IMG/VR virus record: IMGVR_UViG_3300037140_000076 | Span: 1 to 64,000 of that record | DNA length: 64,000 nucleotides | From: a virus | Reading direction: 5' to 3' (one strand) | Shown here: positions 1,551-61,720 of the stretch, piece by piece | Layout: each line of letters opens with the position of its first letter | Numbering within the stretch: position 1 is the stretch's first letter | Made by a program: the position numbers and the translations under genes | Notes under the pieces: generated by a model | Seen by the model: only the letters and a program-made list of their open reading frames with translations | The model's database searches: none | Told to the model about the DNA's origin: nothing

Positions 1551-2624
1551 ATGCCAGATACTAGCGGAACAAATTATAGTTTTTTAAATGATTATATTTC
1601 TAAAATAATTGGAGACTCTGATAAAGTTGACAACAATGTTTCAGAAGAGGATGATGATCATTTTTATGATGTTCCTGATGAGGATGACACCTCTGATGAG
1701 AATAATGATATTCAGTATAGTATGAATTCTAATGAGGATGACAATTCTGATGAAGGCGCAAGATTAGCTAATGATTATCTTCATGAAACTGGTGATCCGG
1801 ATACTACCGATAGTGACTATGACACTGAAGATGATACTGATCAGGATTCTATTTATGGGCAAGGCGATACGGGAAGTTATTCTGATAGTGCTCCTTCAAA
1901 CCCTGACTATTCATACGTTAGTAGAAATGAAGATCCTGAAAACAGCGATTTAGGCTCTAAGATAGCGTCTAAAGAAAGTCAAGGGAAATATGCAGCGTTT
2001 AATTCAGCCGGTGGTGGGGCAGGGGCTGTTGGTAAATATCAATTTAGATGGAATATTTGGAAAGATTCTATCCAAAAGGTAACCGGGGTAAAAAGTAAAG
2101 ATGAATTTTTAAATAATCCTCAAGCCCAGGAAAAATATTATGGTTGGTATGAAAAGAACTATTTAATACCCGTTGCAAGGAAGCTGCAACCTTATAACAA
2201 GAAAGGATTATCTGAAGACCAGATGGCTGAATTAGTTCATTTTAGAGGTGAAGACGGTGCCAAGAAGTATTTACAAGGAACCGCTCCAGATAAGCCAGAG
2301 AGGTATAATATGTCAACCTCCAAGTACATAGCTACTAAGCAACATGGTGGTGGAGGAGGAATGGGGGGAGGAGGCGGTGGACACGCAGGGGGTGGAGGGG
2401 GAATGGGCGTAGCAATGAGTGCTTCGGCTCAACATACTGGTTTAAATAACTCATCTTTTGATCATATGCTCTTTCCAATGCATGGTGAAAATGAATTTAG
2501 GGGATTGGATGATGGATCAGAAGTATACTTGGAGGATGAGTATGGGAAGAAGAAAAAGCTGAAAGGAAAGCATCATAAAACAACGATGAGAGGTCACGTA
2601 TTTGAAACTCGTTTAAATAGATAA
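1551..2624 (+). CDS. Virion-associated lysozyme-like/transglycosylase (muramidase) cargo protein
   Basis: Acidic N-terminus; IASKESQGKY..FN...GAVGKYQF lysozyme-like motif with catalytic Glu; Gly-rich linker; small C-terminal domain. Confidence 0.65.
   Translation: MPDTSGTNYSFLNDYISKIIGDSDKVDNNVSEEDDDHFYDVPDEDDTSDENNDIQYSMNSNEDDNSDEGARLANDYLHETGDPDTTDSDYDTEDDTDQDSIYGQGDTGSYSDSAPSNPDYSYVSRNEDPENSDLGSKIASKESQGKYAAFNSAGGGAGAVGKYQFRWNIWKDSIQKVTGVKSKDEFLNNPQAQEKYYGWYEKNYLIPVARKLQPYNKKGLSEDQMAELVHFRGEDGAKKYLQGTAPDKPERYNMSTSKYIATKQHGGGGGMGGGGGGHAGGGGGMGVAMSASAQHTGLNNSSFDHMLFPMHGENEFRGLDDGSEVYLEDEYGKKKKLKGKHHKTTMRGHVFETRLNR
2345..2410 (+). repeat. Low-complexity poly-Gly coding stretch (GGGGGMGGGGGGHAGGGGGMG)
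   Basis: GGN codon run within the 1551-2624 ORF. Confidence 0.8.
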
Positions 2625-2626
2625 TT

Positions 2627-4108
2627 ATGGCAAAGAAATGGAAACGTCAAACAGGCGGTAATAAAAGAGATGTACATTTTATAAAAATGAGCATATCTCA
2701 GGCACAACAGGGGGGCTTTGTACCTAAAGAAGATCCTAATAATCCAGGGTTTGATCTGCAAGGTAATCCTATTACCCGTTCTTCTCAAGATTATCCAGAA
2801 TTAGAACAAAATCCAGATGCCAATATAGATGTTACAGGTAATCTTGCAGCACAACAAAGACAACAAAGACAACAGCAGGGGAATGCTCCTAATCAGCCTC
2901 CTAAAAAAATAGCTTTTCTTGATAGCCCTCAAGGTAAGACCCTTAATCAAGGTATTAGAGGAATTACTGATGTGGCTAATTCTATTCAAAATAACAAATT
3001 ACAACATCAGGAAAAACTTCAGTTAAATGAAAGCATGACTCCTAGATTCATGCCTAATCCTAACTCCCAGGGGGCTAATAACGCTCCTGCCTATACGAAG
3101 TATGGTGGGGAAATGAAGATGGGAGGTCCGATTTCACACGGTTCACCAATAGGGGTTGTTGATTCTAATTCAGGCGGTCCTGGACTAGATGAATCAATGT
3201 ACGAAGGTATTAATCATGATAGTTTTTATGGACAGGATATGATTTATAGTGGAGAAATGCCAAGATACCGGGCAGGTGGTACTGTTTCTGCTGATAAAGC
3301 TAAAGAAATCCTTCGTGACGGTACAGCCCAGGGACATCCTTTGACTGATAAACAGAAAAGATATTTTGGATGGATTGCGGGTGGTTCTAAACAAGCAGGT
3401 GGATATTACGCTCAAAACGGAACTCAGGCACCGCCTCCAGCAAATGTCCCAGGAGGACAAGACGTTGTTGATCCTTCTAAACTTACTGATGAATATTATA
3501 TTCAAAATCAACTACTTCAACAGGATAAAGAGATGCTTAATAATAAATTAAAAGCAAAAAATCCTCAAGGATACGCTAAATATTTTTCAGGAATGCAAGC
3601 CTCTGAAAAAGCGGGTCATAGTCGTGAAGATTATGTTCAAGGTTCTGATTACAATGATTATTTATCCCCTGAAGAGGTAAAAAGCGCATTTCCTAATCCT
3701 AATGATTATAATAAATATATTAATAGTTTAAAGTCTGTAAATAGTTTCAATGTACAACAGGGACAAAAACCCCTGTATGGTAATATTGAAGGTGAACAAC
3801 AAGATCCCACTAAGATTAATTATGGAAGAAGGGCTGCAAGTGTTCAAACCTCTCATCAATATGCTCAAAAGATTGGAAATTATAATAGAGATTATAAATA
3901 TAATCCTCAAACACAAGGGGTTGATATTAGCGAAAGCGGTGATCTTTCTAAAAGACCTTCACAGTTTAAACCTATACAGCAACCTCAGCAACAGCAACAA
4001 GTTGCATCAAGACAAACCGGAGGATACTCTGTTGGAGATGAAGTTGAATTAAGTGCTCAGGAAATTAAGGAGTTGAAGAAACAAGGATACAAAATAGAAA
4101 ACATATAA
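2627..4108 (+). CDS. Putative internal virion (cargo/ejection) protein with repeated xxGG motifs
   Basis: Q/N/P-rich and probably disordered; RQTGG, AQQGG, TKYGG, MKMGG, YRAGG, KQAGG, RQTGG; lies in structural operon. Confidence 0.55.
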   Translation: MAKKWKRQTGGNKRDVHFIKMSISQAQQGGFVPKEDPNNPGFDLQGNPITRSSQDYPELEQNPDANIDVTGNLAAQQRQQRQQQGNAPNQPPKKIAFLDSPQGKTLNQGIRGITDVANSIQNNKLQHQEKLQLNESMTPRFMPNPNSQGANNAPAYTKYGGEMKMGGPISHGSPIGVVDSNSGGPGLDESMYEGINHDSFYGQDMIYSGEMPRYRAGGTVSADKAKEILRDGTAQGHPLTDKQKRYFGWIAGGSKQAGGYYAQNGTQAPPPANVPGGQDVVDPSKLTDEYYIQNQLLQQDKEMLNNKLKAKNPQGYAKYFSGMQASEKAGHSREDYVQGSDYNDYLSPEEVKSAFPNPNDYNKYINSLKSVNSFNVQQGQKPLYGNIEGEQQDPTKINYGRRAASVQTSHQYAQKIGNYNRDYKYNPQTQGVDISESGDLSKRPSQFKPIQQPQQQQQVASRQTGGYSVGDEVELSAQEIKELKKQGYKIENI

Positions 4109-4112
4109 CATA

Positions 4113-4517
4113 ATGAAAAAACAAAAAACCATAATAGAAATTGTTCCTTTAAATAAACAACGTTATGAAACTTTGGGGGATTATTTTTATGATAAACAAG
4201 GTGTTAGACATTTTAAAATAACAGATACTGGCAATGAATTCTATAATGATCTAATTCTTGTGCATGAATTAATCGAAGAAATTCTTACAAGAGCAAAAGG
4301 TATAAGCGAGAAGACAATTTTAAGACATGACTTGGAATTTGAGAAACTTTTGAAAGACGGAAAAGTTGGTCCAGATGAAGAACCAGGAGAACATAAAAAT
4401 TCTCCTTATAGACAAGAACATTTATTAGCAGAAATTGTTGAGAAGTTAATGTTGAATCATTTGAATAGAGAAACATTTAAAGAGTATAACAGCAAACTTT
4501 ATAAAATATTTGAATAA
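4113..4517 (+). CDS. Small putative metalloprotein/peptidase (HELIE motif)
   Basis: LILVHELIEE and downstream EPG...PY..EH..AE; stop overlaps the start of the ATP-grasp gene. Confidence 0.45.
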   Translation: MKKQKTIIEIVPLNKQRYETLGDYFYDKQGVRHFKITDTGNEFYNDLILVHELIEEILTRAKGISEKTILRHDLEFEKLLKDGKVGPDEEPGEHKNSPYRQEHLLAEIVEKLMLNHLNRETFKEYNSKLYKIFE

Positions 4518-60290: not shown

Positions 60291-60322
60291 AAAAAAAAGG
60301 CCCAATATAGAAATACCGGGCC
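60291..60322 (-). terminator. Intrinsic terminator downstream of the tmRNA
   Basis: GGCCCGGTAT-TTCT-ATATTGGGCC followed by T8 on -. Confidence 0.8.
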
Positions 60323-60347
60323 AATACTTATTTCTAAGGTTTGTCAG

Positions 60348-60705
60348 TGGACTAGTCGGAATTCGAATCCGAGTCTTCAATACAAAAAATCTTACTTTTC
60401 TTTATAGGTTTAGGATAACGATTTAATCTTACTACCGTTCCAAAAGAATTTTCCTACCCTCCACCACTCGGTTTAGGTCCGAGAACCATGCTACACCAGC
60501 CATTTTCTGTTTCAAGGTATGACTACCCATGCATCAAGCTAATTCCAGTTCTTCACTGAAAACCGAAGCGAGTATCGCTTCTCCTTCTGCAATACGTTCA
60601 GCTTTAGACTTTACGTTTGTTTGTTGCATATTTATTAAGGATGTTATATACTGCATCCACCTAAAATAAAACCTTTCAATACTGAATCAATAGCCTTTCT
60701 AGCCC
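60348..60705 (-). ncRNA. ssrA: tmRNA (transfer-messenger RNA), 358 nt
   Basis: 5' GGGCUAG pairs with 3' CUAGUCC-A with the G3:U70 Ala determinant; T-arm UCGGA-UUCGAAU-UCCGA preceded by GAC; helix 2 UUCAGUA/UAUUGAA; internal tag ORF ending ...EELELA*; CCA not encoded. Confidence 0.9.
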
Positions 60706-60710
60706 ATAAA

Positions 60711-60902
60711 TTAAAATAGTAGAGAGTCAAAGAGGTACGGATACGTGAAGACTATATTTCCCAATCTTTATAGTTATTTCCCGTTGCAACAGTAATAACA
60801 CCTCCAGTTTGTCGGAAGCTTTTTTGATTGGTACATCTCGGACACCGTTTCGACCACGCCCATGATCAGTGGGTTTGTGCGGTTCTTCATCTACTATTTT
60901 AA
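60711..60902 (-). ncRNA. Unidentified ~190-nt structured RNA candidate
   Basis: 13-bp terminal inverted repeat closing several internal stems; no ORF; between the tRNA-like element and the tmRNA. Confidence 0.6.
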
Positions 60903-61052: not shown

Positions 61053-61061
61053 GATTTTTCG

Positions 61062-61130
61062 AACATCCAAGAGGAATCGAACCCCTGCTTCACCCTACAC
61101 GGGTGCGTCCTCCCACTAGACCATAGATGT
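61062..61130 (-). tRNA. tRNA-like element with an aberrant 5-nt anticodon loop (GUGUA); identity undetermined
   Basis: Acceptor ACAUCUA/UGGAUGU; D-arm GUCU-AGUGGGA-GGAC; stem CACCC/GGGUG; T-arm AGGGG-UUCGAUU-CCUCU; no CCA. Confidence 0.75.
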
Positions 61131-61155: not shown

Positions 61156-61187
61156 CAAAGATAAGTAACTTTTTTGAAACTTACAAA
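61156..61187 (-). promoter_or_regulatory. Bacteroidetes sigma70-type promoter of the ncRNA cluster
   Basis: TTTG-N20-TATCTTTG, matching consensus, about 25 nt upstream of the tRNA-like element. Confidence 0.8.
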
Positions 61188-61720
61188 TATTTAAATTTAT
61201 ATCCAAATGCGTGTTTTTCAAGACCATTTAAAACATGCCAAATAGTTGATTGTCTTATTTTTAATTGTCTTGAAGCTTCCCTTTGAGAAATAAATTTTAT
61301 TTTTTTGTTTTTAGGAGATATAACTAAAATCTTAGTTGGTTTATTTCCCATGACTTTTTTCAATATATCCCTTGCATGTTGTATATTTTGTTGCCTTGTA
61401 CACCATTCAAGCTGAGAGGCCCGGTTATCAAGTTTATTTCCTTTCTTATGATTTATATCAAATCCTTTTTTATATCCTTTTACAAAATGTTTTCCAACTA
61501 ATATATGAACCTGGATTTTAGTAGATTTTCCATTTTTGGTTAAATCTAATTGTAAGTATCCTTTAGCATTTGGAGAAAGAATTCTATTTCTTCCCTTAAA
61601 TTTTTGTAAAATTCCATGTTTGGTTTTTATTATTCTATCAAGAGATTTAATATTACCATAATTACTTATTTGATAATAACCTTTGTATCCTTTTATATCT
61701 TTCCATTCTTTTTTCCTCAT
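61181..61720 (-). CDS. NUMOD4-HNH homing endonuclease
   Basis: EWKDIKGYKGYYQISN.G, VH.LV..HF, INHK.GNKLDN....LEW.T...N..HA. Confidence 0.9.
   Translation of the reverse strand: MRKKEWKDIKGYKGYYQISNYGNIKSLDRIIKTKHGILQKFKGRNRILSPNAKGYLQLDLTKNGKSTKIQVHILVGKHFVKGYKKGFDINHKKGNKLDNRASQLEWCTRQQNIQHARDILKKVMGNKPTKILVISPKNKKIKFISQREASRQLKIRQSTIWHVLNGLEKHAFGYKFKYL

Follow-up and report, generated by a model that had tools for sequence, protein, structure and literature searches.

A divergent one-piece tmRNA gene with a 26-residue acidic tag frame in a distant crAss-like phage

At which codon would a stalled ribosome resume translation on a tmRNA encoded by a phage, and what label would it thereby write onto an unfinished protein? 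The locus that raises this question lies in the first 64,000 nucleotides of the IMG/VR record IMGVR_UViG_3300037140_000076, a stretch that we call the window (the whole record is 112,374 bp long and is estimated to be ~93% complete). A sequence-only reading of the window recognized a phage tmRNA with tRNA-Ala-like ends, and proposed that its tag frame is entered at an AUG instead of the G-starting codon that is typical.

ARAGORN, the Rfam model RF00023 and an MFE fold delineate a whole, one-piece tmRNA gene of 359 nt on the minus strand (60347-60705; gene position p is window position 60706 - p), which bears out the identification as a phage tmRNA. In a local Rfam search the alignment spans the full model (1-374) with 48.9 bits (E 7e-18), so that it barely passes the gathering score of 47. 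The MFE fold (z = -2.28) shows the acceptor, the T arm, a long P2 helix and the hairpin of pseudoknot 1 (PK1) stem 1. The alanine-type ends are as first described. The 5' half of the tRNA-like domain (60679-60705, minus strand) comprises, in the ARAGORN structure, the acceptor strand GGGCUAG (60705-60699), a D-loop analogue and the start of P2; the acceptor stem has 7 bp (gene positions 1-7 / 351-357) with the alanine identity pair G3:U70, and there is no anticodon arm. At the other end (60348-60372, minus strand, ARAGORN), a T stem (60372-60368 / 60360-60356; gene positions 334-338 / 346-350) with the loop UUCGAAU is followed by the 3' acceptor strand (60355-60349) and the discriminator A (60348, A358). 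CCA is only partly encoded in the window (A-C-U-G) and is fully encoded in the one relative, described below. The 3' strand of P2, which closes the mRNA-like domain, lies at 60376-60398 (minus strand) according to the MFE fold, ARAGORN and the Rfam structure line.

Within the mRNA-like domain, the Rfam alignment sets the PK1 hairpin in the interval where we place the pseudoknot (60627-60658, minus strand; gene positions 48-79). Its stem 1 pairs 60658-60654 with 60643-60639 (gene positions 48-52 / 63-67), and its stem 2 pairs 60653-60648, with one bulged G, with 60631-60627 (gene positions 53-58 / 75-79). A single-stranded spacer of 12 nt, CAACAAACAAAC, comes next (60615-60626, minus strand; gene positions 80-91), with A at -4 and C at -5, and leads into the tag frame. 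The structured region beyond the tag (60399-60533, minus strand), the site of PK2-PK4 in standard tmRNAs, is assigned by a low-confidence Rfam alignment. About 25 nt past the tmRNA is an intrinsic terminator (60291-60322, minus strand) with a 10-bp GC-rich stem (60322-60299) and then T8. The 26 nt directly 5' of the mature end (60706-60731, minus strand) are the same in the relative and may be a promoter or processing context; a sigma-70 scan of this segment found no convincing promoter site. About halfway along the tag frame, the scanner reads as a terminator a 7-bp hairpin, GAAGCGA-UAC-UCGCUUC (60565-60581, minus strand), with a U-rich segment behind it; the hairpin that the relative has at a similar position is a different one.

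In E. coli, 12 nt separate PK1 from the resume codon, and the frame is set mainly by A86, a nearly universal residue at -4 (PMC2481249). In the window, GUA at 60614-60612 (gene positions 92-94) lies 12 nt past PK1 and is chosen by two methods, namely the ARAGORN resume consensus and the Rfam alignment, which sets the consensus GCa over GUA. From this codon the tag frame (60534-60614, minus strand; ARAGORN, Rfam) runs for 26 codons to UGA at 60536-60534 (gene positions 170-172), and the encoded tag begins with Val, is acidic (7 Glu) and ends ...SEELELA. The frame first proposed, 60629-60534, is open and reads as it was written, and it proves to be the tag frame, with a hydrophobic and acidic end, as the only frame that is both open and similar in the window and in the relative. 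What does not survive is its start. The AUG (60627-60629, minus strand; gene positions 77-79) occupies the last three bases of the 3' strand of PK1 stem 2, and both programs pick GUA, five codons further along, which shortens the tag from 31 to 26 aa. GUA follows the rule of G-starting resume codons, and the supposed AUG exception to it falls away. Nor does the corrected start reduce the tag to an ordinary short one, as it still encodes 26 aa.

This gene is easily overlooked. Searching the whole window against Rfam at the gathering threshold returned zero matches, missing both the tmRNA and the neighbouring tRNA, and an RF00023 profile search of the phage's own genome also missed the tmRNA, its sole report being a weak 39-nt match inside a tRNA-Gly gene called by ARAGORN. 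Rfam's speed filters lose these AT-rich phage RNAs, and the lesson for annotation is that divergent phage tmRNAs can escape Rfam at default filters. The neighbouring gene, tRNA-Thr(UGU), was called by ARAGORN ~350 nt upstream of the tmRNA on the same strand (61061-61130, minus strand) and reaches 44.6 bits in the local Rfam search, where the cut-off is 29. A second tRNA-Thr(UGU) occurs within rightward tRNA arrays (G000:C1:83837-83909, plus strand), and the first stands alone beside the tmRNA in the leftward arm.

The hunt for homologues yielded only one match, the near-strain IMG/VR contig 3300050124_000042 (L002, which is the same as L024). The relationship is at the level of strains: the DNA polymerase protein is 97% identical, and the flanks of the tmRNA that BLAST can align are 79-99% identical. 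The tmRNA of the relative (L002:1997-2393) scores 41.3 bits with Rfam, below the cut-off of 47 (E 1e-14). Comparison of the two genes reveals a mosaic. The 5' tRNA-like half, the acceptor stem and P2 are identical, and PK1, the tag and the region that follows are too diverged for BLAST alignment; in the post-tag region, the 5' part is strongly diverged, with ~28 extra nt in the relative, and the downstream part is identical. This combination of identical and unalignable segments might be caused by homing-type gene conversion. An HNH endonuclease gene lies upstream of the tRNA-Thr in the window (61181-61720, minus strand), and in the relative an HNH endonuclease, judged by an HNH-like motif alone, is encoded directly downstream of the tmRNA (2416-2985, plus strand).

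Structure persists across the diverged segments. All five pairs of PK1 stem 1 are kept in the relative and four of the five are changed on both sides, and the T stem likewise keeps its 5 pairs, 4/5 of them changed on both sides. In the relative, GAC is the codon that the Rfam alignment places against GUA, and an 11-nt spacer, again with A at -4, precedes it. From GAC to UAA the tag has 28 aa, with the acidic end ...SEEVLELV. No sequence feature of a working tmRNA is missing from the RNA, and all are kept in spite of heavy divergence.

Is the tag itself conserved as a peptide? The local alignment score of the two tags is 29; none of the eight other frame pairs exceeds 16, and among shuffles that preserve composition 2-3% attain 29. 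The likeness is confined to the last dozen residues, L..VF.SEE.LEL and then A or V, where the codons of shared residues differ between the window and the relative (CUC/CUU, GUU/GUA, UUC/UUU, AGU/UCU, CUG/CUU and UUA/CUU). This pattern is suggestive, not proof, of a tag that is translated as a conserved peptide, given that the statistics and the covariation are thin with two sequences only.

These comparisons bear on how the RNA is read. Our preferred interpretation, which we hold with good confidence, is that this is a functional one-piece phage tmRNA whose tag is entered at GUA and which uses host factors. Four other accounts, in our judgement unlikely even when taken together, are each contradicted by the comparison with the relative, by the anatomy or by the absence of an integrase. 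One, set out in the sequence-only reading, has the frame entered at the AUG at 60629, either as an unusual resume codon for a 31-aa tag or by ordinary initiation, with the RNA doubling as an mRNA. In its favour, the AUG of the window shares the frame of the tag and has an A-rich context. It is, however, base-paired in PK1 stem 2, ARAGORN and Rfam choose GUA in the window and GAC in the relative, and the tag frame of a tmRNA by definition has no start codon (PMC8012679). In the relative, an extra base in PK1 shifts the AUG out of the tag frame, so that initiation there would yield an unrelated 26-aa peptide, and the tag frame, which lacks any AUG, is interrupted by UAA three codons ahead of GAC. 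Entry at AUG is therefore not the conserved mechanism, neither for tagging nor for a dual mRNA, and we consider it highly improbable; as the two sequences read, the AUG is apparently in frame with the tag in the window by coincidence. Much the same low probability attaches to resumption at the GCA that overlaps the AUG, which had been offered as an alternative and would give a short, basic, non-degron tag of 7 aa. No resume codon is commoner than GCA, and UAA soon closes the frame, but the G of this GCA still pairs as the final base of PK1, which would leave neither a spacer nor an A at -4; the counterpart in the relative begins with GGU and encodes 13 unrelated residues, and the conserved ...SEE..LEL. 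frame would be left unexplained.

The remaining two accounts dispense with tagging. The RNA could be a decoy that occupies SmpB or ribosomes of the host and so shuts off its trans-translation, with a tag of little importance. Such a role has been proposed for mycobacteriophage DS6A, whose RNA consists of the TLD only, and tmRNA can be inhibited by TLD-like molecules (PMC4131195); in addition, the tRNA-like domain in the window is unusually divergent, and the phage does not encode SmpB. PK1, a spacer, a resume context and a tag frame would be superfluous in a decoy, and yet all of these, the tag frame conserved as a peptide, are kept in the window and the relative despite sequence that BLAST cannot align; we therefore regard the decoy as improbable. 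It is still harder to see the locus as a decaying or accidental copy, a non-functional fragment of host ssrA picked up from an attachment site. Many prophages do use ssrA as an integration site and contain parts of it (PMC9004378), but here both tmRNA halves are present, two stems show compensatory changes, no integrase was found in the phage, and the same 5' domain occurs in no bacterial genome or metagenome contig in the GTDB and JGI scans, all of which makes this origin exceedingly improbable.

What kind of phage carries the gene? Its family-A DNA polymerase has at most 35% identity to that of any cultured phage. For a 1,732-aa protein, the sole matches are virion RNA-polymerase proteins of crAss-like phages, including Bacteroides phages and Cellulophaga phi14:2, and we therefore take the phage to be a distant crAss-like phage; from this kinship alone, the host is predicted to be a member of the Bacteroidota. 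ARAGORN finds 20 tRNAs and this single tmRNA in the whole 112,374-bp record. Genes for SmpB, ClpP, an RF-1-domain protein and an integrase were sought in the phage, and none was found.

Apart from the one relative, the tmRNA stands alone in the collections searched. Neither the tmRNA locus (blastn) nor the tag (tblastn) has a homologue among 50,697 phage records. Four DNA patterns scanned in IMG/VR found nothing beyond the relative, one of them, a 16-mer, giving 20 chance matches; one pattern in JGI metagenomes gave 5 chance matches only, and one in GTDB genomes had no match. For the neighbouring protein P0001, a search of 5.8 billion proteins found one relative.

Set beside the standard one-piece tmRNA (SsrA) of E. 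coli and the Bacteroidota, the RNA in the window has in common a tRNA-like domain with G3:U70, the T arm, a long P2, PK1, a spacer of ~12 nt, A at -4, a G-starting resume codon, a stop codon and a length of ~360 nt. It differs in the 5' half, which departs from GGGGNNGACUGGUUUUGAC, the consensus of Bacteroidota; where Bacteroidota ssrA has GACUGGUUUUGAC in its 5' domain, the window has GAAAGGCUAUUGAU. The tags are also unlike: those of Bacteroidota ssrA typically have 9 aa and end ...YALAA, whereas the phage-encoded tag has 26 aa, is acidic and ends ...LELA.

The length of the tag had been thought exceptional against typical tags of about 10 aa. The published range of tmRNA tags is 8-35 aa (PMC8012679). 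The literature searched yielded nothing on the Bacteroidota tag motif, so host tags were measured directly, and it contained no discussion of tag length or tag conservation in phage tmRNAs. For a matched comparison, one 19-nt Bacteroidota-type 5' motif was scanned in GTDB genomes and in IMG/VR viral contigs. The GTDB matches listed are almost all Bacteroidota, and 100 of the 104 ARAGORN tags among them have at most 10 aa; 94 have exactly 9 aa, mostly GENNYALAA, with ...YALAA as the typical end. Among the matches listed for viral contigs, a redundant sample in which a few very hydrophobic calls look false, 65 of 88 ARAGORN calls have tags of at least 14 aa, and there are 67 distinct tags; the resume codon that ARAGORN chooses wavers by six codons within one tag group of this sample. 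Long tags are, as these listed IMG/VR matches suggest, usual and not exceptional among phage tmRNAs. The 26-aa tag is thus far above the 9 aa of Bacteroidota hosts, as had been noted, and loses its exceptional status beside other phages, in which tags of 22-25 aa are already catalogued.

Phage tmRNAs are themselves catalogued: the tmRNA Website lists those of Bxz1, Wildcat and others (PMC4131195), and tmRNAs were reported in 402 of 18,146 phage genomes, including, in Table S1, Cellulophaga phages phi14:2, phi38:1 and phi4:1 (PMC9004378). We compared tags called by ARAGORN in five catalogued phages (Bxz1, Wildcat, phi38:1, EFDG1 and 949) and in phi14:2. The tag has 25 aa in mycobacteriophage Bxz1, 22 aa in mycobacteriophage Wildcat, 22 aa in Cellulophaga phi38:1, 10 aa in Enterococcus EFDG1 and 11 aa in Cellulophaga phi14:2, and ARAGORN found no tmRNA in Lactococcus phage 949. 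Like the window phage, Bxz1, Wildcat and phi38:1 encode a complete one-piece tmRNA on a tRNA-rich genome of the lytic type, and their tags are similarly rich in Glu and Asp, with aliphatic ends (...ALV, ...VAA and ...VGV). Their tmRNAs, which Rfam scores at 74-88 bits, have no detectable sequence similarity to that in the window, and phi38:1 retains a host-like 5' motif that the window tmRNA does not. The comparison with catalogued phages shows that long acidic tags were already on record, and that none of these three tmRNAs resembles this one in sequence. The window tmRNA fits a descriptive class of phage tmRNAs with an acidic tag of ~20 or more residues and an aliphatic end, which is not a homology family. 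Peculiar to this case are the divergent tRNA-like domain, a tag end other than Ala-Ala, and the divergence of PK1 and the tag between near-identical strains.

Cellulophaga phi14:2 (NC_021806, L032) is crAss-like, as is the window phage, and its tmRNA is likewise missed by Rfam at the gathering threshold. It is unlike that in the window in its length of 470 nt, its host-like 5' domain and its 11-aa tag ending ...MVA. ARAGORN places it at 4031-4500 (plus strand), between g004 and g006, where it is unannotated in RefSeq, and it probably lies within the g005-g006 junction. This junction is reported to be one of two intergenic regions whose transcription exceeds that of most genes from the earliest time point onward, and its very abundant, early and persistent transcript has been described as a 'long non-coding RNA' of unknown function (Drobysheva et al., bioRxiv 10.1101/2020.03.07.982082). 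That RNA is probably the phage tmRNA. By analogy, the phi14:2 transcription offers indirect support for the expression of a tmRNA in a crAss-like phage.

Could the tag in the window belong to a wider family of phage tags? A series of IMG/VR loci (L168-L287, e.g. L191, L224, L196, L207 and L254) have a Bacteroidota-type 5' domain and mostly encode tags 14-31 aa long. Within this series, a large group has the core ANM-x-KVFSL in common, with tags of 18-31 aa and ends such as ...EEVAVAA and ...VEELEIAA. Ten nucleotide versions of the core differ by 140 synonymous and 56 non-synonymous codon changes, which argues that these tags are selected as peptides. Many contigs of the group encode an exonuclease 37-43% identical to that of the window phage, and many encode terminase, portal and major-head-protein genes 22-29% identical to its own, and these shared genes make the group phages distant kin of the window phage. 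Compared pair by pair, the tag in the window is most similar to tags of this group (VFS ... EELE-L/I-A). The maximum score is reached by 23 of 500 shuffles and the sum of the top five scores by 9 of 500 (p ~0.02-0.05); against the group profile, neither tag scores above shuffles, of which 400 of 2000 match the score of the window tag and 942 of 2000 that of the relative's tag. Unlike the group, the window tmRNA has neither the ANM-x-K part nor the final AA, its tRNA-like domain is different, and it occupies another genome position.

How, then, would the RNA act? On the reading that we prefer, a tmRNA entered at GUA, it would be transcribed with or alongside the leftward replication genes, end at its own terminator, and be trimmed to its tRNA-like ends, with CCA added. 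Host alanyl-tRNA synthetase would charge it with alanine through G3:U70, and it would bind EF-Tu and SmpB of the host, the latter being assumed to come from the host because the phage has no SmpB gene. Recognition by host SmpB is not assured, since the 5' tRNA-like domain departs from the conserved Bacteroidota motif. The charged RNA would then enter ribosomes stalled on broken mRNAs, and translation would resume at GUA 60614, adding Ala and 26 residues ending ...SEELELA before termination at UGA. A likely benefit would be that ribosomes are kept free in an infected cell whose mRNA is being degraded. In addition, the 9-aa ...YALAA tag of the host would be replaced by a long, acidic phage tag, and rescued proteins would therefore bear a signal chosen by the phage. 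Host tags and most phage tags end ...AA, and the tag here ends ...LA in the window and ...LV in the relative; without a terminal Ala-Ala, it may not be a degron. That the phage alters the fate of rescued proteins, as had been proposed at the outset, is a reasonable inference.

This case adds a structurally supported, complete tmRNA of a crAss-like phage, with a tag unlike the GENNYALAA-type tags of Bacteroidota, and it identifies the first in-frame AUG as a trap in the annotation of tmRNA tags. More tentatively, and with somewhat less than even confidence, we suggest that phage tmRNAs, at least in Bacteroidota phages, crAss-like ones among them, may have tags that form a class of their own, two to three times as long as those of the host, acidic, conserved as peptides and imposing a fate chosen by the phage, of which the window tag would be a divergent member without Ala-Ala. 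With such a class, if real, rescued proteins would be recognized by another protease or adaptor, or would be spared degradation by the host. Should long, peptide-conserved tags be the rule in phage tmRNAs, as the comparison suggests, phages would do more than top up ribosome rescue: they would rewrite the label on unfinished proteins.
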